Origin: Leucoraja erinacea
Taxonomy: Eukaryota
DNA: 64,000 nt
Direction: 5' to 3'
NCBI RefSeq assembly: GCF_028641065.1
Contig: NC_073404.1
Span: 13,454,001 to 13,518,000 of the forward strand
Shown: positions 801-57,300 of the stretch, piece by piece
Position numbering within the stretch: position 1 is the stretch's first letter
Layout: each line of letters opens with the position of its first letter
Translations under genes and position numbers: made by a program
The notes under the pieces: generated by a model
What the model saw: the letters and a program-made list of their open reading frames with translations, nothing else
Told to the model about the DNA's origin: nothing
Databases searched by the model: none

Positions 801-1530
801 TCTGATTCAGATTCAATTTTAATTGTCATTGTCAGTGTACAGTACAGAGACAACGAAATGCATTTAGCATCTCCCTTGAAGAGCGACATAGCAAACGATT
901 TGAATAAAAAATAATAAGTGCCATAAGTTGCCATACCATACTGTGATGCAGTTGGTAAGGATGCTCTCGATGGTGCAGCGGTAGAAGTTCACCAGGATCT
1001 GAGGAGACAGATGGACCTTCTTCAGTCTCCTCAGGAAGAAGAGACGCTGATGAGCCTTCTTGATCAGAGTAGAGGTATTGTGGGTCCAAGAGAGGTCATC
1101 GGAGATGTTGACTCCCAGGAATCTGAAGCTAGAAACACGTTCCACCTCCGTCCCGTTAATGTGGATGGGGGTGTGCGTGCCGCCTCTGGACTTCCTGAAG
1201 TCTACAATGAGCTCCTTGGTCTTCTTGGAGTTAAGGGCCAGGTTGTTGTCAGCGCACCATGCTGCTAAGTGCTGGACCTCCTCCCTGTAGGCCAGCTCAT
1301 CGTTGTTGCTGATGAGGCCAATCACCGTTGTAGCATCTGCATACTTGATGATGGTGTTAGTACCATGTACAGGTGTGCAGTCATAGGTGAAGAGGGAGTA
1401 GAGGAGGGGGCTCAGCACACAGCCCTGAGGAACGCTGGTGTTCAGGGTGAGGGTTGAAGAGGTGTGCTTGTCTAACCTCACAGACTGGGGTCTGTTGGTT
1501 AGAAAGTCCAGTATCCAGTTGCAGAGGGAG
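801..1530 (-). mobile_element. Rex1/Babar-type LINE RT fragment, internally deleted, inserted into a Penelope terminal repeat
   Basis: ORF 864-1481: [18 protein letters not shown]...[12 protein letters not shown]...[11 protein letters not shown]...[12 protein letters not shown]; TCTGAA-type tail at 801-815; host repeat resumes near 1535. Confidence 0.85.
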
Positions 1531-2239
1531 GGACTCTGCTGAGTTACTTCAGCATTTTGTGTCTATCTTCTGCAACGTGTCCCAAGTGTGTCGGATAACG
1601 CTGGTTGGAATGGACTCGGTGGGCCGAAGGGCCTGTTTCCACATGGCATCTCGAAGTCTAAAGACTCCATTCGTGCAGGCAGCGGTGAGAATCATCATCG
1701 ATGTCCACCTTCACTAAGAGGTGGTTTTGGAGATCTTATAATTGTCCATGTTTCACAAGGTCCCACTGTGAATTTCTACAGTTCAGTGTGTGAACTGTAG
1801 AAGGGTCTCGACCCGAAACGTCATCCGTTCCTTCTCTCCAGAGATGCTGCCTGTCCCACTGAGTTACTCCAGCACGTTGTGTCTATCTACAGTCAGATAG
1901 CCGAGTTGTTCAGCAGGGGCAGGCTGCCTTTGGTCTTGTGGATGTCGAGTGAAAGGCCCATTCTTCTCGTGCAATTAACGAGCGAGCGATATCTGGGAGC
2001 TCAGACTCCAAGAGCACACAATGCAAATGCCGTCTGCACCATACAGCTCCACCATTGGGGCGACTGTGGCTGGGAGAATGGAGGTGGAGGGTCCTAACCT
2101 GGGCAGTGGCATCGCCAACTAGTGACAATCTCCCGGCACTGAACTTGTTTATGCTCGTTTATTATATTGTTTACAGTACTATATTTACATATTCTGTTGT
2201 GCTGCTGCAAGTAAGAATTTCCTCGTTCTATCTGGGACT

Positions 2240-8600: not shown

Positions 8601-11600
8601 AGGGGAGCAGACCTGGCCAACAGATGAGGAACTGAGAGAGGCCGATGGTGCGTACTAGTCATTCTCCAGTAAAAATACCAATACCAAGACCACCCCTCAG
8701 CAACCATGCAGAGTTAAGCATTTCCTAACAATGCACTGTTGGCAAGGGCAGCATTTAATGCCCATCCCTCAATGATCTTGCAGAAGTGGTGATGAGTCCC
8801 CTCTTTAATCTCCGCAGTCCTTCTGGTGAAGGTGTTCTCACAACACTGTCGGTGAGACATTTAGAGGATGTAGACACAGCGATGGTCAATGTCCTATCAG
8901 CAAAGCACAAAGTGATGAAGAAACCCAGCAGGTCAGGCATCATCTGTTAGTTACAGAAAAGTGCAGATTAAAATAAAGTGCAAATTTCACAATGTGGTAG
9001 GTTGGAAGATTGTGACTAGACCCTAGCTTATGTGAGGACGGTACAGCAGCGGTCCTTGATTATGTTAGCTGCCTTTCGGAGCTAGCATGAAGTGTAGATG
9101 GAGTCGATGGTGGGGAGGCTGGTGGTGTGATGAACTAGGGGTTAGATCTCAATGTTGGGCTCATCAACAGCACACACAGTTTCAAGAATTAAGTTAGTTT
9201 GGAACTTCAATCTGCCTTCTAATTCTGCTGAATAGACTCATCCAGTCATGCAGCATCCATGGTGCAAGAAACACTGAACATGATCGTGAAGAATAGAATT
9301 CAAATACTGATAGAATCTATGAAAATCACCACTTGCAGAAATCTGAAACTGCTGGAAACATTCAGCAGGTCAGTCAGTAACTGTGGAATGCAAAATCGAG
9401 TTTAAGGTCGAAGACTACCGTGTGAAATAGACAATCAATAATCATTAATGCTGTTGCCTTATTTATTGGAGCTGGTATGGCAGAGCAGTCCTGTAGGCTC
9501 TTGTACTACAGAACTGCGTGTGCTTCTGTCTCCCACTCAGCTTTACCACATGAGTTTTTAACGGAAAGTCATAAAATACTCCCCTCAGGATATCAATAAC
9601 AGATTTATGAAGAGTTAACATATTTGTGCCTGATGGTCAGTTTGATTATTTCATCCCTGCGTCTCAGTGGTGATTCAGACAGACAATCTTTACCTCGATC
9701 TCTTCTCTGGGGTACATCACAGCAGCCGAGCTTTGAATTCCTGCTTTGGAAGTGAGGAGGCTGTGCTCCTTGATTCGAATCCTTGATGCTATCAATGTCA
9801 CTTCTGTTCCATTCTGCTTTAGAGGCATTAAAGGCAAACAAGAAGATTGTTCGGAGAGTCCCAAAAGGCACGTCGGACTACCAGGCTGCGTGGATCCTGG
9901 ACGATGAGGAAGGGGAGGATGAGGAGGAAGAAAGTGATGATGATGATGATGATATGGAGGGGCAAGACCTGATAGGGGAGGCAATGTCGCAGGTGAGTAA
10001 CGTTTGGATGTATCATCTGTATTGTCTGGAATTGCTAACCCAGCTCTGAAGTCAGAAGACGGTGCATTTGTGCTGTGCTTTCCCCTGGTGCCAGAGAGCT
10101 GTATTACATTTCTCCTTGCCCTAGGCGGCACGGTGCCGTGGCGGTAAAGCTACTGCCTTACAGCGCCAGAGACTCGGGATCGATTCTGACCACGGGTGTT
10201 TGTCTGTACAGAGTTTTACGTTCTCTTTGTGACTTGCATGGGTTTTCTCCCAAGATCTTCGGTTTCCTCCCGCACAAAGTTGATGTACATGTTTATAGGT
10301 AAATTGGCTTGGTATAAATGTAAAATTGTCCCTAGTGTGTATAGGGGGTAGTAATAATTTGCATGAATCGCTGGTTGGTGCAGACTCAGTGGGCCACATT
10401 GTATCTCTAAACTAAACTAAACCTGGGGCAGTACTGTCCGTGTGGCTGAGTGTACCGTGTCAGGTTGCTGTAAGAGTGTGGTGCAAGAATGTGGCATTCC
10501 TGAACAATGAAGTTCAGGTACATGGGAACACCCTCATTAACAGGTTCCCTTCCAAGTTACACATCCTCCGAGACAGATGATATTTTGAGTTGGGGGCCCT
10601 TCTTCCGAATTGAAGCATAACGGCAGAGTCAAATTCAAACAGTGGTAAGATGGCAGACATTGTCTTGTAGAGGGTGCATTGGTGTGTGGATCCAGGAAAT
10701 AAACATTCAGATCAGAAAAGCAAGCCTTATGTTTGCAAATGTGTGAAGAAGTCTTGCTGGGATTGTCCATGGCTTTACTGAGACCACTTTTAGAAGAGTG
10801 TGTGCATTTTGCTGCTAGTTTCTAGTGAAGCATAGATGAAGCGCCAGTGCGCCCAGGTGTGAACACTGTCAACGGTCTGCACCAGAATATGAAAAGATTG
10901 CCATTGAGCTAAAAGAAAATGATCCTCCTATTCCAGTTGCCAAAGTTGATGGCACATCACAAGCTGGTTTGGGCCAAAGGTTTTATATTGGTATGCACCC
11001 CACGCTCAAAATTGTGAAAAATGGACAGCCAATTCATTATAAAGGAACATTGGACAAAGATGGTAAGAACATACTCTAATCATTTGGTCTCATTAACTGT
11101 TTATAAAATGTGCTTGTTAATAGTGGCTAACTGAAGTTACCAGTGAAGCCTATGAATGTGGGCTAATCTTATACATTAATCATAGAAGCAATCCCTTGCT
11201 TTTACCGCTAGTTAATTGTTGTACAATTCTTTTGTGTTATCTTATGCAAAGGAAAGTTATTTTGCTATAGTAATCTTCGAGATTAATGTTTTTAAATTCT
11301 TAATTTAGTAACCCCTACTGGTTAATTTCCCCATGATTTTTACACTTTCCAAGCAAGGTCAATAAATGTTTAACTTGAGCACCTCTTTTTGTGTTGAGGA
11401 CACTAAAGAGTTGACACGTGGTATTCCAGTTCCTTAATGCTTAATATGATGACTTTTACAGATGTTACTTAATACACCTTTATTATAGTTATGATCCTTC
11501 AGTGGAATTTCTTGTTTGTTTGTGCCATGAGCTAATGTTTCAAGAACTATCAATACACCTGAGCATGAATAGAGGTGAAATTGATGTTAGGTTATAAATG

Positions 11601-14600
11601 GGATGTGTGGAATAAATGAGAGGGAAAAGAAAATAACTGATTTATAGAATGATGCAACAGAAAATGCTTGATTTAGCAGAGCAGTCCCATTTACACTTGC
11701 TTCCCCCCCCCCCCCCCCCAGCTCTTTACATTCAATACACACCTAATTTGATTGTAAACATTGTATTTCAGTTTAGTTTCTCCCAGGGTATTAAAGTAAT
11801 GTGGCTAAGATTGGATTCCTGATCCAGAATCATGTGTTTTAAGTCCTAGCTTGACAGCTGGAGAAATTGAATTGGAACAAAAATTAAATTAGAATATAAC
11901 TGACCTGTCAGTGGTAAGGATTTTTGTTAGCTGATTAGTGCGTTTGCTTTACAAGTCAATGAATTGGTGTTAGATATAGCTCTTCGTGCTAATGGAATCA
12001 AGGGATATGGGGAGAAAGCAGGAACGGCTTACTGATTTTGGATAATCAACCATGATCATATGGTGGTGCTGGCTCGAAGGGCTGGATGGCCTACTCCTGC
12101 ACCTATTTTCTATGTTCCTATAACATTAGTTCAGGAGTTGACTCTGGATGTAGGTTTGCCCTCATAAAAATCATAAAAATGGTCTTTTCTCACGTGTTTG
12201 GAAGAATGAGAGGTTATCTTTCTAAGAAGGATTAACAAAGTGGATAATGAGAGGTTGTTTTATTGAGCTGAAGAGTCGTAGTCATACAGCATGGAAACGC
12301 CCAACTTGCCCACGCAGACCAACATGCCCATCTACACTGGTCCCACTTGCTTCATAAATTTGGCATCCATTCCTCTAAACCTATCCGATCCATGTACCTG
12401 TTTAAACGTCCATGTACCTGTCCAAATGAAAGAGCCGCAGCATTTAGGAGGATTTTTTAAAATTCAGAGCTTCATGTCCTTGGATTCCTCCACCACAAAT
12501 GGTCAATTGTTGAGAATATTCACGAATGAGATTAATGAACACTGATGCAATGGGGAATAACGTGAGATATGGGTTGAGGCACAAGATCGAATGTGATTGT
12601 ACTGAGTGGAGGATCAGTTTCTGGGCAGAGTGGCCTCCTGCATTGGAGGACACAATTTAAAATGCCTGACGTGATAAATGAATGCTGATGCACTGCTGAA
12701 GGGATGGGCCATGGGGTTTGTAGCTGAGGGTGACTGGCTGGTCCCAAGCTGCCTGACGTATCCCGGTGTTCTCTCCCTACAGGCCAGCAATGAGAGTGAC
12801 GATGAGGGAGAGGCCACAGAGGAGTGTGAAACCATGACTTTGCCCGAAAGTGTCCGTGATGATAATTACGACGAGAAGATTGACGAGTCTGAGGAGAGGG
12901 AGATGCTGGAAAAGTACAAACAGGAGCGGATGGATGAAATGTTCCCGGATGAAGTGGACACACCGAAAGATGTACCTGCTAGAGTCAGGTACCTTGCTGC
13001 TGGGTGCTACCAGTCTCGGCAATTTCTGACTGCTTTCCATTTGGTGCTTTGGAGCAAGCGTGAGGAATCCCTTGCAGAACACAATCTGGCCCTTGAACAG
13101 GATAGTGACCTTGGCTGCTGTCTGTGTGGAGCTTGAATGTTCTCGCTGTGACCATATGGGTTTCCTCTGGGTGCTCCCGTTTACTTCAAATTCTCAACTA
13201 AATGTAGGTTTGCAGGTTAATTGGCCTCTGTAAATTGCTCATTGTGTGCAGGGAATGGATGCGACAGTGGGTGAAGGTACAACTAGTGTGAACAAATTAT
13301 TGAGGGCCGGCGTGGACTTGGTGAGCCGACAGGTCTGTTTCAACATCGTACCTTTAGACTAATCTAAACTGAATTGAAGCCTGTACACCATTCAGCTGCT
13401 TATGCTGGCCCCACCATTCAGTAGATCATCGGACGTGTATTTCCTCAGGTTCACTTTCCTGCACTAACCTCCATACTCATTGGGTCCTCGCCCTCCAAAA
13501 ATCTATCTGTTTCTGTTCTGGCATGGGCCCTGCCTCTTTGTAGGCTATACCTGCCTTTTTGTAGGGTACGTCGAACAATCCTTGTTCGAGGCGTACCCTG
13601 GCCCTATCCCTGAACTCGCTACATTGACGACTGCATTGGTGTCACCTTCTACACCCATGCAGAACTCGTTGACTTCATCTATTTCACCATTAACTTCCAT
13701 CCGGCACTCAAATTCACCTGGACCATTTCCGACATCTCCCTACAGTTTTTAGACCTCGGTATCTCTATCGCAGGTAACAGACTACTGACCGACATCTACT
13801 ACAAACCCACTGACTCCCATGGCTGTCTGGACTACACTTCTTCCCACCCTGCTTCCTGTAAGGACTCCATCCTCTACTCACATTTCCTCCGTCTACGCCG
13901 CATCTTCTCCCAGGATGAGGTGTTCCACACCAGGGCATTGGAGATGTCCTGATTCTTTAGGGAACGGGGGTTCCCCTCTTCGACTATAGATGAGGCTCTC
14001 ACCAGGGTCTCCTCTAAATCCGTAGCTCTGCTCTCACTCCCCATCCCCCCCACTCATAACAAGGACAGAGTCCTCCTTGTCGTCACCTTCCACCCTACCA
14101 GCCATCACATACAACAGATAATCCTCCAACATTTTCGCCACCTCGAACGGGATCCCACCACTGCCCACATCTTCCCATCGCCTCCTCTTTCGGCTTCCCG
14201 CAGAGACCGCTCCCTCCGTAACTCCCTGGCCTATTCGTCCCTTCCCACCCAAACCACCCCCTCCCCTAGTACATTCCCTTGCAACCGCAGGAAATGCTGC
14301 ACTTGTCACTTTACCTCCCCCCTCGACTACATTCAAGGACCCAAGCAGTCTTTCCAAGTGAGGCAGAGGTTCACCTGCACCTCCTCCAATCTCATCTATT
14401 GCATCTGCTGTTCTAGCTGCCAACATCGATGAGACCAAGCGCAGGCTTGGCGATCACTTCGCCCAACACCTCCGCTCAGTTTGCAATAACCAACCTGATC
14501 TCCTGGTGGCTCAGCATTTCAGCTCCCCCTCCCATTCCGAATCTGACTATTCTGTCCTGGGCCTCCTCCATGGCCAGAATGAGTCCTACCGCAAATTGGA

Positions 14601-27620: not shown

Positions 27621-29565
27621 TTGGTCTTTGGGGGAAGTAGATGCTTTGTTGGCCTTAGCTTAATGTGGTTTTATGGTGAATTATGGAGTCAACTTTTCTT
27701 GCGATACAGAGAACATGCTGAATAGAAGGCTTTGTCCTGTCCCTCCTCTTTCCCAGCTTTTCCCACGTCCACCACAATCAGTCTGAAGAAGGGTCCCAAC
27801 CTGAAACATCACCTATTCATGTTCTCCAGAGATGCTGCCTGGCCTGCTGAGTTACTCCAGCACTTTATAACTTTTTTTTAGTAAACCAGCATCTGCAGTC
27901 CCTTGTGTCTACAATTATAAGGAGACAAATCTGGATTGTTTTCTCTGAGGCACCAGAGGTTGAAGTATATAGAAGTATATAAAATTATGAAAGGCATAGA
28001 TAGGATAGGCAGCTAGAACCTTTTACCTGCGTTAGGGTTAGGACTAGAGGACAACTTTAAAGTGAAAGTTTAAAGGAGATGTGCAGGACAAGTTTTTGAT
28101 GCAGAGAATGATGGATGCCTGGAACACACTGCAAGGGGTGGTGGTGAAGGTGGACATGATGGGAGTGTTTAAAAAGCTTTTGGATAGGCACATGGATATG
28201 TAGGGAATGGAGTGATGTGGATCACAGGGGAGATTAGTTTAACTCGGCATCATGTTCAGCACGGATCTTGTGGGCCGAAGGGCCTGACCCTGTGCTGTAC
28301 TGTTCTATGTATGCTCTCCAGATGATGAGGATTTTGTGATAGAGAGCATAATTATTTGAGCGGTTGCTGGAAAATTTGACAATGAGTGTTAAACAGGCTA
28401 TAACTAACTTTGTTGGAGTAACCCAGTGTCCCTGTACTATGAACGCCCACGCAGGGAGAACGATCTTTTACCTCCTCACTCTGGCAATGAATGGGTGAAA
28501 CGATGCACAGGATCTCCCAGGAATGGCCGTACACCTGAGACTTGTCCAATACCCGGTGCGCTGCCTCGAGCTGCATCGGCCCCGGTGTACTCCCCGAGGC
28601 CCCAGCATTCGGAATCAATGACAGCATCTGACGGCCAGTGCATTTTGCAAATGGAAAAGTTGGAATTGTTTCCAAGGGCTGTCCGGCAATCCATTACCAA
28701 AGTGTTGCATTGTCTGAAACAGGAGTTTCTGCTAAAACAATTTGCCTGGACCAGTTCTACGCACTGGCATAAGTTTACTAGCTCTGAGAAGAAGTGTGAT
28801 TGGATTTCTGTGACAAGCATAACAAAGCCAGATGCCTCTTGTTGGACTCCAGCCATCATATTTGTGAACTTCACTCCTGGGATGTCAGGCCCATTGTTTT
28901 AATTCTGTTTGTCAGTCTGGGGGAGGAGGGGAGTTAGATGTTTGAGATACCACGGCTAGAAGACAACCAGGGGAGTTCTCCCGGTGTCCCGGCCAACAGT
29001 TATCCATCAACTTACACCATCAGAATGAAAACTAACAAGCTGTCCATCTTCTTGTTATTTGTGGGGTTGCGAGAGGTGCAGTAACTGTGCTGCGAGCCCA
29101 GAGCAGGCTGACTGTTAAAGTCGCACCTTGTGGGTCAGGCACCGACAGGCCTGGAGCAGTTCCTCAGCAGGGGAAGAACTTCAAAAACTTAGCAACAAAG
29201 TTTAACACCTTCATTACTCCGAAAACTCCATCAACCAGGAACCTTAATATGCAATGCCCACGCTCAGAGAATGAGTATTCTAGGTGTGAATTGTGCCAAT
29301 GACTCTCAGTGCCTGCCTGATACTAGTTATTGTAGTGAGCTTTCTCCTGATGAGGGGCTGATTGGCTATTGAAGGTACTCCTCGGGTCTGGAGCCATCTC
29401 GAGATGACCAGATTGTATAGACGAGGTTTGAGTGTTAGCACAACTTGCCCATTGTTGTGAGAACTACAGACTGTCCGGCATTGCCCATCGACTGAGAACT
29501 ATAAATGCATCAATGTGTGACCAAAGCTCAAGGGGAGGACACCACAAGACTCAATGGACCGAATA

Positions 29566-35228: not shown

Positions 35229-37732
35229 CAGTGCCCTCCATAATGTTTGAGCCAAAGACCCATCATTAATTTATTTGCCTCTGTACTCCACAATGTGAGA
35301 TTTGTAATAGAAAAAAATCACATGTGGTTAAAGTGCACATTGTCAGATTTTATTAAAGGCCATTTTTATACATTTTGGTTTCACCATGTAGAAATTACAC
35401 TGCGTTTATACATAGTCCCCCCATTTCAGGGCACTATAATGTTTGGGACACATTGCTTCACAGGTGTTTGTAATTGCTCAGGTGTGTTTAAATGCCTCCT
35501 TAATGCAGGTATTAGAGAGCTCTCAGCACCTAGTATTTCCACCACCTTTGGAAACTTTTATTGCTGTTTATCAACATGAGGACCAGAGTTGTGCCAAAGA
35601 AAGTCAAATAAGCCATTGTGAGATTGAGAAACAATAATAAAACTGTTAGAGACATCAGCCAAACCTTAGGCTTACCAAAATCAACTGTTTGGAACATCAT
35701 TAAGAAGAAAGAGAGCACTGGTGAGCTTACTAATCGCAAAGAGACTGGCAGGCCAAGGAAGACTTCCACAGCTGATGACAAAAGAATCCTCTCTATAATA
35801 AAGAAAAATCCCCAAACACCTGTCCGACAGATCAGAAACACTCTTCTGGAGTCAGGTGTGGATTTGTCAATGACCACTGTCCGCAGAAGAGTTCATGAAC
35901 AGAAATACAGAGGATACACTGCAAGTTACAAACCACTGTTTAGCCGCAAAAATAGGATGGCAATGTTGAAGAAGTCTGAAGAAGGGGTTCGGCCCGAAAC
36001 GTTGCCCATTTTCTTCACTCCAAAGATGCTGCTGCACCCGCTGAGTTTCTCCAGCTTTTTCGAGTACCTGGCAATGTTACAGTTGGTCAAGAAGCACTTA
36101 AAAGAGCAACCACAGTTCTGGAAAAAAGTCTTGTGGACAGGTGAGACGAAGGTTAACTTATATCAGAGTGATGACAAGAGCAAAGTATAGAGGAGCAAAG
36201 GAACTGCCCAAAATCCAAAGCATACCACCTCATCTGTGAAACCCAGTGGTGGGGGTGTTATGGCCTGGGCATGTATGGCTGCTGAAGGTACTGGCTTGCT
36301 TATCTTCATTGATGATACATCTGCTGATGGTAGTAGCATAATGAATTCTGAAGTGTATATATACATCCTATCTGGTCAAGTTCAAACAAATGCCTCAAAA
36401 CACATTGGCCGGCGGTTCATTCTACAGCAAGACAATGCGACGTTTCTGGTCGAGACCCTTCTTCTGACTGTGTCGTCGGGGGGGGGGGGGGGGGGGGGGG
36501 GGGGGAAGAAGAAAGGAAGAGGGCGGAGACAATGGGCTGTGGGAGAGCTGGGAAGGGAAGGGGTAAGAGGGAGAAAACAATGGCTATCTTCTAAAATTAG
36601 AGAAATCAATGTTCATTCCGCTGGGGTGTAAACTACTGAAGTGAAATATGAGGTGCCGCTCCAATTTGCGCTGGGCCTCACTCTGGCAATGGAGGAGGTC
36701 CAGGAAGATTGTTCCCGATGTTGGGGAAGTCCAGAACAAGGGGTCACAGTTTAAGGATAAAGGGGAAATCTTTTAGGACCGAGATGAGGAAAACTTTTTT
36801 CACAGAGAGTGGTGAATCTCTGGAACTCTCTCCCGCAGAAGATAGTTGAGGCCAGTTCATTGGCTATATTTAAGAGGGAGTTAGATGTGGCCCTTGTGGC
36901 TAAAGGGATCAGGGGGTATGGAGAGGGCAGGTACAGGATAGTGAGTTGGATGATCAGCCATGATCATATTGAATGGCGGTGCAGGCTCGAAGGGCCGAAT
37001 GGCCTACTCCTGCACCTAATTTCTATGTTTCTATGTGTCTGTGTGCCTAGTAGTAGGATCCCGTTGGAGGTGGTGAAAATGTTGGAGGATTATATATTGT
37101 AAGCGACGGCTGATGGGGTGGAAGGTGAGGACAAGAGGTACTCTGTCCTTGTTACGAGTAGGGGCATGGGGATATCTCCCGATCTGACCTGATCTGAACC
37201 CAATTGAGCATGCCTTTTATATGCTGAAGCCCCCAAAACAAGCATAAGTTAAAGGTGGCTGCAATACTGGCAGAGCATCACCAGAGAAGACACCCAACAG
37301 CTGGTGATGTCCATGAATTGCAGACTTCAAGCAGTCATTGCATGCAAAGGATATGCAATAAAATACTAAACATGAATACTTTCATTTACATGACATTGCT
37401 GTGTCCCAAACATGATGGTGCCCTGAAATGGGGGGACTATGTATAAACACTGCTGTCATTTCTACATGGTGATAAGATAATAATAAGATAATGTTTTGTT
37501 TATAGGGACAGTGCATATTAATTAACATTTGCATGTAAATATGCGAGATTGTAGCTAATCAGCAGCTAATTTCCGTCTCTAGTGAAACCAAATGTATCGA
37601 CAATTATTAAAATCTGACAATATGCACTTCAACCACATGTGATTTTTTTTCTATTACAAATCTCAAATTGTGAAGTACAGAGGCAAATAAATAAATGATG
37701 GGGCTTTGTCCCAAACATTATGGAGGGCATTG
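35229..37732 (+). mobile_element. Tc1/mariner DNA transposon (IR/DR type), inactive, with nested insertions
   Basis: TA|CAGTGCCCTCCATAATGTTTG ... CAAACATTATGGAGGGCATTG|TA; long IRs with inner DR; transposase HTH TVRDISQTLGLPKSTVWNII, GRPRK, WTGETK (catalytic D to G), stop at 36188-36190, VMAWACM, QQDN, DLNPIEH. Confidence 0.93.
36438..37170 (-). mobile_element. Penelope-like fragment nested in Tc1, itself interrupted by a + strand CR1 tail (approx. 36705-37035)
   Basis: Terminal repeat directly after the QQDN codons; CR1 VNLWNSLPQKIVEASSL plus (tttctatg)n tail. Confidence 0.82.
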
Positions 37733-39370: not shown

Positions 39371-42300
39371 CTCCCCCCTCCCCAACTGCCCCCTTCCCTT
39401 CCCTCTCCCTCCCCCCAACTGCTCCCCCTCCCCAAAACTTCCCCCTTCCCTGCCCTCTCCCCCTCCCCCCAACAGCTCCCCCCAACTGCCCGCCCTTCCC
39501 CCCAACTGCTCCCCCTCCCCCCCAACTGCTCCCATCCCTCCCCCCCAACTGCCCCCCCCCCAACTGCCCCCTCCCCCCCCCCCCCAACTGCCCCCTCCCC
39601 TCTCACTGACCCCCCCCCAAACTGCCCCATCCCCTTCCCCTCACTCTCCCTCCCCTCCCCCCCCCCACTTTCTCACTCCTCCCCCCAACCTCCTCACGAT
39701 CCCTCCTCTCCTCACGATCCCCCTCCCCCCCACCCACTCCCTCCTCCCCCCCACTCGCCCATCCAACTTCCCTCCTCCNNNNNNNNNNNNNNNNNNNNNN
39801 NNNNNNNNNNNNNNNNNNNNNNNNNNNNNNNNNNNNNNNNNNNNNNNNNNNNNNNNNNNNNNNNNNNNNNNNNNNNNNNNNNNNNNNNNNNNNNNNNNNN
39901 NNNNNNNNNNNNNCTCCCCGCTCCCATCCTCCCTCTCTCCCCCTACCTTTTTCCCTGCTCTCCCGGTATAGCAAAATGTAACATACTGGTTCTTTTCCAG
40001 ACGTTTCCACTAAAGAGCCACGATTGAGGAAGGACAACCGCCGGCCCGATATTCAAATTTACCAGCCTGGTGTTTCCAAGCTGAGAACCAACAAGCAGAG
40101 AGCCACACAGCTTGAAAAGGAGGAAGGAGATATTGGGGGTCATAAGGAAGGCCCTTTAAAGTCTGTGCCTAAGAGGTCCAGTCCTTTAGCTGGTGAAAGC
40201 CAAGGTAATGGTGGAAATAAACAGGGATGCATGAACAAGAATGGTCAGCTGGATCGAAACGAAGAGGATGATTTTAAGTATACCGATGAGTCAACTGTTG
40301 CAAGTTCTAACTCCAGTGATGTTGGAAAGCAGTTAAAAAGGATCAAGAAACCTGATCGCCAGATCTACCAACCAAACAGACGGGTGCAAGGGTTCAGTAG
40401 GGAATCACCCAGTGCCATGGGCAATGAAGAACTGGTGAAGAAGGTTGAGGAGCTGAGGCTGGCAGATTACAGTAAGGATGCCTGTCCCGAGGAGCAGATT
40501 ATTGAGATTGTTGAAGAAAAAGATAACCTGGAAGACCAAGAGAAAATTCAGCTAATTTCACCGGCGAAACCTGGAAAAAGGGAGAAAGGGAGGAGGGGGG
40601 GGAGGGAGGACGGTGCAGGTCGGGCAAATAACTATGCAGAAGAACCTGAAGACGGTCAAGTCAATCGCTTGCAGGCACGAGCAGAGAGAGCCGGCGGGCT
40701 GTCGAAGCGCTACTCCAGGTCTGACAAGCGCAGGGGCCGTAACCGGACGTGCAGCGTGAGCTCTGCAGGAAGCAACAACAGCCTCGAAGGACCTCCGTGC
40801 CAGCACCGGCCTGCTGACGTGGAAAGGAAGAGAGGAGCGGGGAAGGAAAAGAAAACTACAGGTGAGCGGAAAGAAAGGTTGAGATCTTCCAAACAGGTTT
40901 CAATCTCTTCCACAGATTCTTTGGAGGATGACTGTGCTGAGGAGACCAGAAACCATGCACCTGAAAAGCGTAAAGGTTACGAGAAAGAGCGAGCATTTGT
41001 CAGAAGTGCGGACTGCAGGAACAGGGAGAACAAGTCCTCGCAAAGGGTTATGTTTGACAATGAGACGGGCAGCAGAATGACCATTGCATCCAGGCCAAAC
41101 TCTGAGGAAAAGAACAAAGGGAGAGGCAAAGGCGGCCGGGTGGTGAACAAACCTGGCCTGTCGGGCAAACTCGGTCTGAACACGGAGAGAAGGGATAAAG
41201 TGGAAGAACCCAAAGGGAAGGGCCGGGGTATTTTGATCCTGCCCGCCAACACCGATCTGTCATCCACAGTCCCTGGCTCTCCTGATTCCCCACAGGTGGG
41301 GCTAAGACTTCTGTTTGGTCGAGGTTCCCGAAGCCGGGGCCGTGGTGGGACATCCCGGAGGCTCTGGGATCCCAACAATCCCGACCAAAAACCTGCACTG
41401 AAGAGCCAGACTGCCCAATTGCATTTCTTGGACACTGATGATGAGTGTAGTTCATCCTCCCAGGGAGAGACCTACTCTTCCTACACACACCCAACGCCCA
41501 CGGCGTACTACAAGTTCCAAAACTCGGACAATCCCTACGGTTACTCCAGGGCTGCCGTGACTGGCCCCCAGTATTCATATGGGGCCTACACTATGCCCTA
41601 CCAGATAGGTGGTAACACCACCATGTATTCTACACAGTATTACCCGAGCTACCCTCCTGCCCAGTTTATTGCTCCCTACCAGACTGGGCAGTTGCATCCT
41701 GAAGACATGGAGCAGCACGTGCAGACTCTCCAGCATCAGGAACTGGGGAAGCTCCTGCGGATGGCAGACAACCAGGAGCTGCAGCTCAGCAACCTGCTCT
41801 CCAGAGACAATGTCAGTAAGGACGGGCTGGAGAGGATGGCCCTACTCAGGTGAGCCCTTTTGCCTCTGGCCATGACTATTTACTTCCAGTTTAGTTTAGA
41901 GATACAGCGCGGAAACAGGTCCTTTGGCCCACCGAGCCTGCTCTGACCAGTGATCACCATACTCTAACACTATCCTACACACAAAAGGGACAATTTACAA
42001 TTTTTACCGAAGCCAAGTTAATCTACAAACCTGTACATTTTTGGAGTGAGGGAGGAAACAGTATCAGCCCGGGGAAAACCAACACAGTCACTGAGAGTGT
42101 GAAGGAAGGAACCGCAGATGCATTCACGGGTAGAACGTACAAACTCCATACAGACAGCACCTGTAGTCAGGATCGATCCCGGGTCACTAGCGCTGTAAGG
42201 CAGCAACTCTACCGCTGCGCCACTGTTGCCCGTAAGATTTGACCGAGTGTCAAGCCACTGTTAGTCTCTCCATTCCCTTGTCTCGATTAAACTCCCTCGG

Positions 42301-51300: not shown

Positions 51301-54300
51301 GGTGCTGCAGCCACCACTGGGTGGCGGCATGGTTCCATTACTGTGGTGCGTGGTGACCATAGGTCGGCTGTGCTTTCACTTTAGTGTAGCAGCCGCTTAA
51401 AATGTCATGACAGCAGGGTAAATAAATTGATGGGTGTTGCCTGTGTGTGATTGCACCCATCATCAGAAGAAGTGCTGGAGGAACTCAGTGGCTCAGGCAG
51501 CATCTGTGGTGGGAAATGGTCGGATGTTTTTGGGTCGGGACCCTTCTTCAGACTGATGGAGTGGTGGGCAGATAGTTAGTAGAAATAGGTGTGGGGAAAG
51601 GATTGGGCAAGAACTGGCAAGTGATAGATGGAAGCAGGTGAGGAGGGTTTATTGGCAGATGAATCAGGTGGGGGAGGGAAAGGTAGAGATGGTCAGAAAG
51701 GCCGGATGTGATGTGGAATGCCCTGAGCATAGGATTTAACCATCAGCAACCTCAGCCAACACTTGAACTTATGAACTGTAACCACCTGATGCCATTGGTA
51801 GCTAGATTTATTTATAGAGTCATACAACGCAGAAAAATGCCCTTTGGCTCAACATTTATATACTGACTATCTACAATAATCCTGTTTACCAGGACGTGGT
51901 ATGTAGCATTCAATGCATTACAGTGCGCAGCCGACTATCTGAATGTTTTGACAATCCCAGCCCCTACCATCTCGCTGTGTGCATTTCGGATACCAGCCAC
52001 TCTCTGGGTGAAATAATTCTTCCTCAGATTCCTTCTAAACCTTTTACTCGTAAACTCAAACTTATGCCTTCTGATCTTAGACAGGACTTGGTAGGGGTAT
52101 AACAATACAAGCATTTGAGGCTAATGTTTTTTACATAGAGAGTGGTTGATATCTTGAACTCACTGTCAGAAGAGGTGGAAGAATCAGATATAGCCAGTAT
52201 GTGTAAGATATTTAGACAGGCGCTTAATTAGCCATGGCATAGAAGGATATGGACCAAGTGCAGGCAAATGGGATTATTATATATGGGCAAAAAAATTGGT
52301 ATTGACATGGTGGATTGAAAGGGCCATTTCTATGCAGTAAGACCACTCTATAGCCGCTGCCACATGGAAACGATTCTTATTATCTATCCTGTTTGTGTCT
52401 GTCATGATTTGGTATTTAACTCTATTTGGTCCCCCTTGGTCCTTCTGTACTCAGAGGAAAACTTTGGCTGTACCGCACGGCCGTGCACCTTCTGTGAACA
52501 TGTTTAAGAAAGAACTGCAGATGCTGGAAAAATCGAAGGTAGACAAAAATGCTGGAAAAACTCAGCGGATGAGACATGCAAGGATTGCATGAAGCTGCCT
52601 CACTCGCTGAGTTTCTCCAGCATTTTTGTCTACCGTCTGTAAACACGTGATTTGATGCCTGCCATCCGGGGCGGGATCCATGTGTACACGTGATAGATGT
52701 GGCCCGCCATCTGCTCACAGACATGCGCCCTGGCCCCTTTGCAGAACAAGGTTGTGTTGTGCAATTAACCTGATTTGATAAGGGAATTCGAGGTAAATGA
52801 GCCATTGGGCAGTAGTGATCATAATATGTTAAATTTTATTCTACAATTTGAGAGGGAGAAGGGAAAATCGGAAGTGTCAGTATTACAAGTGAACAAAGGG
52901 TACTATGGAGCCATGAGGGAAGAGCTGGCCAAAGTTGGAAAGATACCCTAGCAGGGATGACAGTGGAACAACAATAGCGGGTATTTCTGGGAATAATTCA
53001 GAAGGTGCAGGATCAGTTCATTCCAAAGAGGAAGAAAGATTCCAAGGGGAGTAAGGGGTATGTGAAGAGGAAATAATTAGTTAAGACCAAAGTTGGACCC
53101 TTGAAGACTGAAACAGGTGAATTTATTATGGGGAACAAGGAAATGGCAGATGAGTTGAACAGGTACTTTGGATCTGTCTTCACTAAGGAAAACAATCTCC
53201 CTGATGTACTAGTAGCCAGAGGATCTAGGGCAGTGGTTCCCAACGTGGGGCATACGCCCCACAGGGGGGCAATTTGATTTTTAAGGGGGGCAATTGAGCG
53301 CGACTGAGGAGGTCTGGGTCCAAATTTTCGATTTTAATTTTTTTGGATTTTCCATCCGGTAAACATATGTAGTTTATGTTTCAGATGTTATTTTGAGTAA
53401 ATAATATTTTTTGGGTAAAAAAGGTCTTTATTGCGTAGTTATTACATAATCACCACAATGTTCTTTTGAAGCTTGTTTAAACCAAGGTATTGGCGTTTTA
53501 AGCTTCTTCAGCTGAAACGGAGTTCACTTTTTAAATGACAAGAATTACATATCACCACATGGGGGGGGGGGGTGGCGGGGCATCAGGATTTTAGAGGTGA
53601 TTAGGTGGGGCATGGCCAAAAAAAGGTTGGGAACCACTGATCTAGGGTGACGGAGTAACTGAAGGAAATTCACACCAGGCAGGAAATGGTGTTGGGTGGA
53701 CTGATGGGACTGAAGGCTGATAAACCCCCAGGGCCTGATGGTCTGCATCCCAGGGTACTTAAGGAAGTGGCTCTAGAAATCATGGACGCATTGGTGATCA
53801 TTTTCCAATGTTCTATAGATTCACAATTAGTTCCTGAGGATTGGAGGGTAGCTAATGTTATCCCACTTTTTAAGAAGGGCGGGATAGAGAAAACAGGGAA
53901 AACAGGGAATTATGGACCAGTTAGCCTGACACCAGGGAAGATGGGGAAGATGATGGAGTCAATTATAAAAGATGAAATAGTGGCACATTTGGATAGCAGT
54001 AACAGGATCGGTCCGAGTCAGTATGGATTTACGAAGGAGAGTTGAGTATAGGAGCTAAGAGGTGCTTCTGCATTTGTACAGGGCCCTAGTGAGACCACAC
54101 CTGGTGTAATGTGTGCAGTTTTGGACTCCAGATTTGAGGAAGGTCATTCTTGCTATTGAGGGAGAGGTTCACGAGGATGGTGGGATTAATTCCCGGGATG
54201 GCTGGACTGTCATATGTTGATAGAATGAAGTGGTTGGGCTTGTATATTCTGGAATTTAGAAGGATGAGAAGGGATCTTATTGAAACATATAAGGTTATTA

Positions 54301-57300
54301 AGGGTTTGGAAACGCTAGAGGCAGGAAATATGTTCCCGATGTTGCGGGAGTCCAGAATCAGGGACCACGGTTTAAGAATAAGGGGTAAGCCATTTAGAAC
54401 AAAGATGAGGAAATACTTTTTCCACACAGAGGGTTGTGAATCTGTGGAATTCTCTGCTTCAGAAGGCAGTGGAGGCCAATTCTCTGGATGCTTTCAAGAG
54501 ATAGTTAGATAGAGCTCTTAAAGGTAGGGATATGGGGAGAAGGCAGGAACGGGGTACTGATTGTGGATGATCAGCCATGATCACAGTGAATGGCGGTGCT
54601 GACTCGAAGGGCCAAATGGCCTACTGATGTACCTATTGTCTATTGTTTAAATTGGACTGTCCCAGTAGGCCAACTTGGTCGGCCTGGTCAATGTGGGCCG
54701 AACGGCCTGTTTCTGTGCTGTATAGTTCTATGAATGCTGTTGGGTGGGAGAACAGAATGGACTGTGTTTGGCTGCTGTTTCTCTCTGTATTCCTGTGTTT
54801 ACTGCACAAGGAAAAACCACAATACATTCCCACTGGATAATTGCTTTACTTTGTGCTGAAATAAGGCTGACCCAGGGGCATTGGAATTTCCCGGAATGTC
54901 AGCAGCCAGAGGGTTAATGGTCAAGAGCAGTTGGAAATGTACCCAGGAGAGTGGGCTGGTATGCAGCTATCTCATTGTTACCAAGTGTTGTCATCTGGGC
55001 AGCCACTGTGGGAGAGTTGAGAGCAGCAAGATTTCGGTTGTGGAGCTGAACTGTTGGCCAGCGTTTAACTTTGTTTTTCCCATTTACACTGAAATTTGCC
55101 ACTTCTTGGCTGAGTGGAGAAATGAAGCATTTGACAGTGAGAAGATAGCTTTTCCATGTTGTCCTCCTTTCTCCATATCCCCAGGGCTGCAGATCATGCC
55201 TTTTGTCAGATGAAAGCTTGAGCATTTTTAGGGCTGAGGTGTGCTGGAATCTGTTTTCTTGCTCCCGTACCCTCTCAACGGAACGAGGCAACGTGGAGTT
55301 TGTGGGCCGGCTGCTTATCGGGACGGGGAAAGCAGTTGTTGGGTGATTACTGATTCAGCTGCTGTCTTCGTGATCTCTATTCGGGATTGAAGCTGATGTG
55401 TTAGTCAGTTAATTAATCTGTGTACGTTTAACCCAAATTTGATAGAAAAGGAGGTAGGATTCTCAGAGGAATGTTCCTCGAGGAAGGGCACTGATGGTCC
55501 AATCCCTCTTTCATGGTATGAATCCACTTATCCAAGCTGGAATAAAACAGCAACATTTGAATAAGTTGGAGCTCCCAGCTCTCCTGATGCATAGCCTCTC
55601 CCTCAACGGTGCAGATGCACAGAGCCACTGGTTTTCCCAGGTACTGAGTTGCTTGTTTCTCCTTCCCCTTGTCTGAGAACGCCAACTTGAGGCCAGGATC
55701 ATTATCTAATAATCCTGGGTCTCATATCTCCCCACAGCTGTATTTGTGGCAAATTTTTCATTAATTTTGGAACGATGTGTTAGTGCCCAGGATAGAGCAA
55801 GAGGGGAAGCCTGCCAAACCAGCAACCGATTCAATGTCCAAAGAGTGCAGGGAAGATCTACAAGGATGCTGTCAGGACTCGAGGGCTTAAGCTGCAGGGG
55901 GAGGTTTGGCAGGCTTGGACTTTATTCCTGAGACCACTGGAGACTGAGGAGTGATCTTATTGAGATGTATAAAGTCATGACGGGGCATAGATATGGTGAA
56001 TGCAGTGGTGTAGGAGAATCAAAAACAAGAGGTCATAGATTTAAGGTAAGATTAGAAAATTTTTGTGAGGTGCAACTTTTACACATGGGGTGGTGAATGG
56101 ATCGAGTTACCAGAGGAACTAGTTGAATAAGGTGTACGACATTTGGACAGATAAATGGACAGCAACAGTTTGGAGGGACGTCGGGCAAATGGGATTGGCT
56201 GAGATGGGTCACGTTGGACGAATTGGGCCAAAGGGCCTATTTCTGTGTGCTGTGTGACACTGAGCGCCTGCTCCACCTTGCCTGGTGTCAGCCAGAGTAG
56301 TCTGCTCACTTGTCAGATGTTTCAGACAAACACTGGCAGCGGAATGGCAACACAAAATACTGGATTTATGTTTAGAATTGCGACCCCCCCCTCCCCTCGC
56401 CCCAATTTTAGAATCCCACCGTTTCCACGAGATAAAAGCAGAGTAAATAGACATTGGTGGAGGAAAGCTGTGAGACACTTTTGTATCTCGAATTGCAATG
56501 GATTATCCCAGGTTAGTGAGCTTGTCGACTGATGTGAGCCCAACTCTCTTGCAACAGCTTGTGCACACCGCCAACAATCCTCCTGATTCTTCTCACTAAA
56601 TTTCTTATTTAGGACAACACATCTGCATGTTCCTGTTTAAAAAATCTGGTGAAGAGGAGCAGGGAGGTTTCCCGCCGTGCTGGCCAACATTCCAGCCCAG
56701 GCTGACGGTCCCAGAAACAGAGCAGCTATCCTGTCCTCCCCCTGCTGCCCTTGGGATCGTTCTATGTACAGAATGGTGGGAGTAGTCCCTTGCACAAGTC
56801 ACTGCACTTCCTTCTCTAAAGTACTCTTGAGAATGTGAACCCCGTAACTGTAATGAACCTTCAATTAATCCGAACCTTTGAAAATGAGACGTCAACCCTC
56901 AGCATAACCTGAACAAACGTAACAACTGGGGCAGGTTCTCTGTGCCACTAGATGTCAGTGGTTCACATGAGAATTGCGCTGAGGAAAGTATTTGAAGTGT
57001 TAATGAGGAGTCATTGTATTCCCAAAGGGATTGCTGATTAAATTTCACATTTGAAATGGGGTAAGGAATTCGATCTCGTGGCACTGAAAGCTGCAGTGCG
57101 TGGGTTTGATGTTGAGTCGGTGCCAGCATATTGCAAGAAATGGAACAGATTTTGTCTCTTTTTTTTAGGAATTTTAATCTTTTTTGGAGTTGGACCTCAA
57201 CACCCTCACCTCACGTGAGGTGTGTGGAGCTGCCTGTCTGCGGGCAGCCTTTGGTGGATATTGCAGTGACCCAGTGAAATCTTAGTTTGGGATTTGGACA

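Follow-up and report, generated by a model that had tools for sequence, protein, structure and literature searches.

Insertions of CR1-type elements often carry a short target-site duplication or none at all. LINEs of this kind are described as recognizing their own 3' end stringently (accessible sections of PMC3747384 and PMC5470649; Suh 2015 as cited there), and CR1-type enzymes, for which that end is required, are considered inefficient at producing retrocopies (PMC5470649, accessible sections). Here we describe a fragment of PDIA4 (ERp72) that lies, together with a LINE tail, in an intron of TSR1 in the Leucoraja erinacea genome. Within the window (i.e., the whole stretch of 64,000 nucleotides that was analysed), TSR1 intron 7, as numbered by coding exons (9993-12782), holds a segment of 206 nt with 68 codons and no stop, which begins in phase 2, ends in phase 1 and is flanked by ccag on the 5' side and by a G/gtaaga donor on the 3' side. 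All of these traits, as well as the placement in the seventh intron, had been described correctly in a first-pass annotation of the sequence, and its attribution of the segment to the first active domain of PDIA4 also held. The translation gave a significant match to the Pfam Thioredoxin family (E=4.6e-12), in which profile positions 30-95 of 103 are covered and the fold is thus incomplete; its best match in the PDB was PDIA4 (E=9e-41); and the exon phases equal those of the parent gene, as expected from the claim that a phase-2 start fits a PDIA4 boundary. A search of the 64-kb window returned no second PDI exon, again in agreement with the annotation. The coordinates of the insert and its surroundings are given in Table 1.

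Table 1. Parts of the PDIA4-derived insert and the TSR1 exons on either side, in window coordinates
Feature	Position	Strand	Remarks
TSR1 coding exon 7 (host gene), phase-0 donor	9823..9992	+	65 reads of run X24 join the exon to 12783
5' junction, 9 nt like the end of PDIA4 exon 2	10848..10856	+	7/9, in frame (A-P-R vs A-P-W), AG end; probable exon 2 origin
PDIA4 exon 3 copy (a0 thioredoxin domain, second half, with CEHC)	10857..11062	+	14/206 nt differ from parent
PDIA4 intron 3 copy, first ~650 nt	11063..11738	+	donor GTAAGAAC same as parent; 57/641 aligned bases differ, 7 indels
Probable further PDIA4 intron 3 copy	11739..11955	+	no counterpart in assembled parent; found on X1 and X6 contigs of parent type; assignment probable
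High-copy LINE, 5'-truncated 3' tail, putatively CR1-type	11969..12129	+	sense with the PDIA4 piece; start maybe 11956
TSR1 coding exon 8 (host gene)	12783..12990	+	genome single copy

When the genome was searched with the DNA of the tract, PDIA4 was the one match that was not a short repeat. In the genome's own PDIA4 (G000:C2), exon 3 and the beginning of intron 3 align with 10855-11738 at 778 of 893 positions (87% including gaps), and the exon of the first active site was located at G000:C2:55831722-55831928 (-). The exon is accompanied by ~680 nt from intron 3 of PDIA4, which the annotation had missed, and identity between the copy and the extant gene is 91-93% at the DNA level with the intron included. 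A protein search of the same genome with the segment gave five matches, namely the window, two C2 exons of one gene and two more distant PDI-family exons. Likewise, a search with the whole PDIA4 protein gave 20 matches, among which nine were exons of one intact PDIA4, one was the window and the rest stood at 38-64%; no second PDIA4 gene was found by this search of the genome. The PDIA4 a0 domain is the best match of the tract in both protein and DNA, and the exon boundaries of the parent are kept (among the named homologues, the nearest relative of the source exon was from a ray, at 85%). The tract, exon 3 plus the beginning of intron 3, exists as one copy and derives from the genome's only PDIA4. 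Since this single gene, itself CEHC at the a0 site, suffices as the source, the divergent paralogue that had been suggested is not needed.

The CEHC motif had likewise been read as a change from CGHC that took place in the copy. Exon 3 of the parent reads CEHC at the first active site, and in an alignment of PDIA4 homologues (13 of the 14 found, one frog isoform being omitted) the seven named sharks and rays carry CEHC (4), CEQC (2), or CEEC (1) at this position, as opposed to CGHC in all five bony vertebrates; a near-identical homologue also has CEHC. The two other active sites of PDIA4 are CGHC throughout the alignment. Because the parent is CEHC and 7/7 shark and ray proteins are C-E-x-C, no such change occurred in the copy, and to judge by the alignment its motif is an inherited one, the form taken at the PDIA4 site in the sharks and rays compared. 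The acidic residue, along with the loss of histidine in some lineages, may shift the redox potential of the site or serve a non-canonical role. No description of a C-E-x-C site in PDIA4 of sharks and rays was found in the literature searched, which took in few subscription papers. As a lineage-wide change of a redox motif, C-E-x-C versus CGHC is a side result that is possibly worth more than the exon copy.

Copy and parent exon differ at 14 of 206 nt, four differences being synonymous and ten nonsynonymous, and not by the "many substitutions" noted before the parent had been located. The resulting dN (0.066) and dS (0.094) give a dN/dS of 0.70 (p=0.51), a pairwise value that blends the constrained parent branch with the branch of the copy and in which no constraint was detected. 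Divergence amounts to 6.8% (14/206) in the exon versus 8.9% (57/641) in the intron (p=0.39). Outgroups place five amino-acid changes clearly on the copy branch (K5Q, F7S, D43Y, Y47H, and F50L) and leave three ambiguous, and contigs of related organisms put the changes at codons 36 and 37 there too. The copy branch bears 7-10 amino-acid changes in comparison with a neutral expectation of 7.05, calculated from half the intron distance; an omega of 0.2 would predict 1.4 changes, with a probability of 0.0006 or less for seven or more. Four of the seven clear changes affect positions that are invariant in seven other elasmobranchs, and such positions make up 39 of the 68, an equal share. Purifying selection was not detected, on counts (10 and 4 changes) that are small enough to accommodate weak constraint by themselves.

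The annotation was right that both cysteines and the cis-proline are kept and that the exon has neither an indel nor a stop. Its reading of this preservation as constraint fails: in neutral simulations with 8-16 substitutions the open frame, both cysteines and the proline survive in 33-58% of cases, and the absence of an indel over 206 nt has a probability of 0.11-0.32 by chance. The dN/dS value, the neutral count on the copy branch, a 68-nt deletion in a relative and skipping in RNA (both below) all speak against constraint. The exon copy is in neutral-looking decay and gives no sign of function.

Splicing was followed in three raw-read RNA runs and one run of contigs (X15) that carry the label of organism A, with X24 as the informative run, of which ~5% was read. 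In X24, 65 reads from 42 different starts splice TSR1 exon 7 to exon 8, and the same junction was seen in one X22 read and one X15 contig. The annotation had proposed to look for junction reads at 10857 and 11062; in the four runs (X24, X22, X23, and X15) there were none, and RNA depth over 10840-10953 was zero in each of them. The exon copy is skipped in RNA, and the 0 inclusion versus 65 skipping reads set an upper bound of 4.5% on inclusion, for one run in which tissue and the state of nonsense-mediated decay (NMD) were not controlled. Reads that do fall on 10954-11067 are PDIA4 mRNA, because they show the parent letters at 11019 (9/9) and 11035 (15/15), which are absent from the copy contig of X1. 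RNA of the parental intron 3 is also present in the libraries, given that 5/5 reads at 11587 carry the parent letter. If included, the exon would be read in the TSR1 frame as Val-stop, with the stop at its second codon. By a simple count, the acceptor region from -24 to -4 has 9 pyrimidines of 21 and three AGs, as opposed to 14-17 of 21 and no AG in three real acceptors; lacking a polypyrimidine tract, the "ccag" acceptor would be ignored by the spliceosome. The annotation had overlooked this weakness.

The same reads differ from the window in the TSR1 exons. Every covering read disagrees at 9896, 9974, 12947, and 12975, several further sites are mixed, and 47 of 74 X24 reads lack 3 nt at 9935, in the acidic tract of TSR1. 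Unlike these exon reads, the DNA contigs of X1 match ~1 kb of the TSR1 intron exactly. High polymorphism, a population difference, or an assembly error are alternative explanations of the mismatches.

The orthologous intron, which the annotation had wished to see in other elasmobranchs, was followed in DNA contigs of organisms A, C, D, and E, from one run each, four runs in all out of 24 listed. In 4/4 runs the junction between TSR1 flank and exon is spanned by a contig with over 31 letters to either side of it; since this holds for all of them, the insert is genuine and predates the split of these four organisms. Misassembly of the block, which the annotation had considered, is ruled out by an X1 contig that covers 10801-10959 and runs through the left junction without a single difference. 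In organism A, the copy contigs agree fully with the window over 10801-10959 and 10933-11287. Two contigs of parent type differ by 30 mismatches and 27 gaps and by 20 and 1, the same counts as for the assembled parent. One contig of organism D, with a side of 30 letters, joins 10940 to 11009, i.e., a deletion of 68 nt of the exon (10941-11008), whereas the copy of organism E has no gap within 10933-11062. Depth in organism D drops over 10941-11008 to the parent contig alone; contig depths are inconsistent (records were filtered and small bubbles apparently merged) and are therefore not used for conclusions on copy number or gene conversion. The letters that the copies in organisms C, D, and E have in common do not yield a single consistent tree.

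At the left junction, homology to the parental genomic DNA ends at the acceptor AG, and the 2.66-kb intron 2 is wholly absent. Of the 9 nt that precede the exon, seven agree with the end of PDIA4 exon 2 and two with intron 2, and the protein searches ran on into 10848-10856 unprompted. Matches of at least 7/9 occur at 0.15% of the 4582 AG-ending positions of the window and in 0.13% of local shuffles, and the same extension score is reached in 0.26%, so that the exon 2 match has p=0.0013-0.0026 given the AG. The Bayes factor for a spliced template versus a DNA break is 9, and up to 71 with a longer break range, a figure that depends on the prior range. The match is thus suggestive, not proof, of a spliced exon 2/3 template, being nine bases with two transversions and noticed post hoc. 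For the left flank (10430-10855), no source was found in the PDIA4 region or elsewhere, short repeat matches aside. The stretch 10832-10856 forms a short near-tandem in which gcgccag occurs twice in 16 nt, and this could be an end-joining scar; organism E lacks 3 nt at 10840.

On its right side, the tract leads into the LINE tail. This repeat has 3252 candidates in the genome, of which 40 were scored with a best of 91%, and the tail lies 6-7% from its nearest copies, which is of the order of the age of the PDIA4 copy. Longer copies of the tail family (e.g., L032) carry C-terminal ORF2 peptides that we take to resemble those of CR1. Pfam searches with a nearby ORF2-like piece and with two ORFs of the repeat region identified no family, and the tail folds no better than its shuffles (z=0.28). 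The match to the assembled parent ends at 11738, with 11739-11955 and the tail absent there, and a search of G000 for a second match to 11735-11965 gave none. The nearest tail in the assembled parent is 1.6 kb further on and 80% like 11969-12129, and seven LINE tails occur within 50 kb around PDIA4.

Parent-type contigs extend beyond this point. One from X1, identified by the parent letters at 11587, 11592, and 11596, reaches 11919 at unchanged divergence, with 31 mismatches, 16 of them before 11738, and a parent-type loose end from X6 resembles 11920-11950 by eye past 11919. As calculated from record lengths, the parent-type remainders of X1 and X6, of 78 and 76 letters, stop near 11996 and the copy contig at 11998, ~30 nt into the LINE tail. 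From these stop points, and from the 30 letters seen past 11919, we infer a fuller PDIA4 allele that runs into the LINE tail and a deletion in the assembled parent. The assembled intron 3 (G000:C2 near 55831074) seems short by at least 250 nt in comparison with the parent-type contigs of X1 and X6, which would mean either an allele with a deletion or a gap in the assembly. A target-site duplication was not found: the longest exact match between the insert ends is 6 nt, and matches of 5-6 nt beyond the tail are no more than chance would give. The 8-mer shared by 10816 and 11774 was rejected as a target-site duplication because 11774 is probably inside the copied tract. Poly(A) was also absent.

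We regard it as an even call that this dead PDIA4 copy was made by the reverse transcriptase of a CR1-type LINE acting on a half-spliced pre-mRNA. According to this proposal, PDIA4 intron 3 would have borne a fresh LINE 3' tail ~0.9 kb past exon 3, and the CR1-type enzyme, dependent on its own tail, would have primed on that tail in a PDIA4 pre-mRNA from which intron 2 had already been removed. Reverse transcription would then have run back through intron 3 and exon 3 and across the spliced exon 2/3 junction, stopping ~9 nt into exon 2 in nucleotides that have mutated since or that matched the target imperfectly; these nine would supply the acceptor-like "ccag". Against the proposal, its left-end signal consists of nine bases with two transversions, the AG would equally fit a DNA break at the parent's acceptor, there is no target-site duplication, and the assembled parent lacks both 11739-11955 and a tail at that place. 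Neither the insert's right boundary nor an empty site was seen, and the name CR1 comes from ORF2 motifs of longer copies. The main rival is a patch at the DNA level, in which a break in TSR1 intron 7 was filled from the PDIA4 locus, maybe via the shared LINE tail, and rejoined through the 2-nt AG microhomology. An unspliced intron 3, the lack of poly(A) and of a target-site duplication, the AG held in common with the parent's exon 3 acceptor and the abundance of LINE tails at both loci all suit such a patch; we nevertheless consider it unlikely, since it needs two coincidences, i.e., a break that falls no more than 2 nt from where the exon starts and a 7/9 in-frame match to exon 2, with a Bayes factor of 9-71 against them. 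More doubtful still is a template switch, whereby an active LINE started on its own RNA and jumped after ~160 nt to a PDIA4 pre-mRNA, the tail never having been in PDIA4. The orientation and order of the parts (cellular RNA 5', LINE 3') are those of the chimeras in the accessible part of PMC2104539, and the assembled parent has no tail at the equivalent place, but the parent-type contigs of X1 and X6 stop inside the tail where the copy contig does, which argues for a parental tail.

Retention of the exon by selection, either as a poison cassette that tunes TSR1 through NMD or as a coding exon, appears very improbable in spite of the intact donor, the open frame, the strand shared with TSR1 and the presence of the copy in organisms A, C, D, and E. 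The exon is slightly less diverged than the intron, not significantly so, and a poison exon would require no protein-level constraint, which makes it compatible with the dN/dS, and would be hidden by the decay of its isoform; set against this are 0 inclusion versus 65 skipping reads (at most 4.5%) and a purine-rich acceptor. Use as a coding exon is excluded by the Val-stop frame, the changes at invariant residues and the 68-nt deletion in organism D. A divergent or lost PDIA4 paralogue as the source, or an assembly error, is scarcely credible: codons 22, 60, and 68 of the copy do encode the residue of most sharks instead of the parent's, but identity is 91-93% including the intron, the genome has no second PDIA4, and the junction is bridged in 4/4 runs. 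Returning to the CR1-primed copying of a half-spliced pre-mRNA, we think it somewhat short of an even chance that a dead intronic CR1 tail can give a stringent LINE enzyme the handle with which it copies a pre-mRNA in mid-splicing into the intron of another gene. That this route delivers a whole exon with its donor in sense orientation, and so amounts to RNA-based exon shuffling in genomes thought to be poor in retrocopies, is a suggestion to which we give the same slightly less than even credence.

Elsewhere in the window, an open stretch at 35612-36187 (+) presumably resembles a Tc1-type transposase, one at 867-1562 (-) presumably the end of a LINE reverse transcriptase, and one at 53659-54649 (+), blank in Pfam, presumably a longer fragment from the LINE family that the tail belongs to. 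A stretch of 140 open codons lies at 28479-28898 (-), between TSR1 and a SMG6-like gene (large exon 39982-41850), and the strand opposite to it has an open frame of 164 codons.

No report of a PDIA4 copy in TSR1 intron 7 was found in the literature searched, which included few subscription papers. As part of a gene, the exon copy is a fossil without importance. If the tail-primed route is true, its importance would be modest: any pre-mRNA could bear such a handle, as tails litter introns (seven in the 50 kb around PDIA4). Compared with exon 3 of the PDIA4 a0 domain, the copy is alike in sequence, phases, donor, CEHC, and cis-proline, with 58 of 68 residues identical to the parent gene. It differs from PDIA4 in being half of one domain, without the EFYAPW strand, the signal peptide, the other domains, and the retention signal, and in that it is not spliced into mRNA and gains changes at invariant residues. 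Small DNA duplications and templated insertions at breaks are, like the copy, ~1 kb long, single and on another chromosome, with the intron kept and no target-site duplication. They would leave the exon 2 match at the left end unexplained. Processed and intron-containing retrocopies of the L1 type, as covered in the accessible sections of PMC5470649, are likewise dead, dispersed, and 5'-truncated, and the copy may share with them one trace of a spliced junction; it differs in that it retains the next intron, probably ends in a LINE tail and has neither poly(A) nor a target-site duplication. Judged as a retrocopy, it offers a junction with 7/9 nt of exon 2 and a kept intron 3, and beyond the tract a LINE tail on the same strand, with the end of the insert unfixed. 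In SINEs and other RNAs with a borrowed LINE 3' tail, such as HE1/HER1 of sharks and rays (PMC3747384, accessible sections), cellular sequence also stands 5' of the LINE tail, as a stringent enzyme would require, whereas the insert described here is one copy, presumably of a protein-gene pre-mRNA, without a Pol III head or amplification. Chimeras formed by LINE template switching, as far as the accessible part of PMC2104539 describes them, have the cellular part 5' of a truncated LINE on the same strand, as does the insert; they show direct repeats and join two RNAs, whereas the tail of the PDIA4 copy was probably already in the source intron. The copy, which now works like none of these systems, belongs among the dispersed gene fragments.
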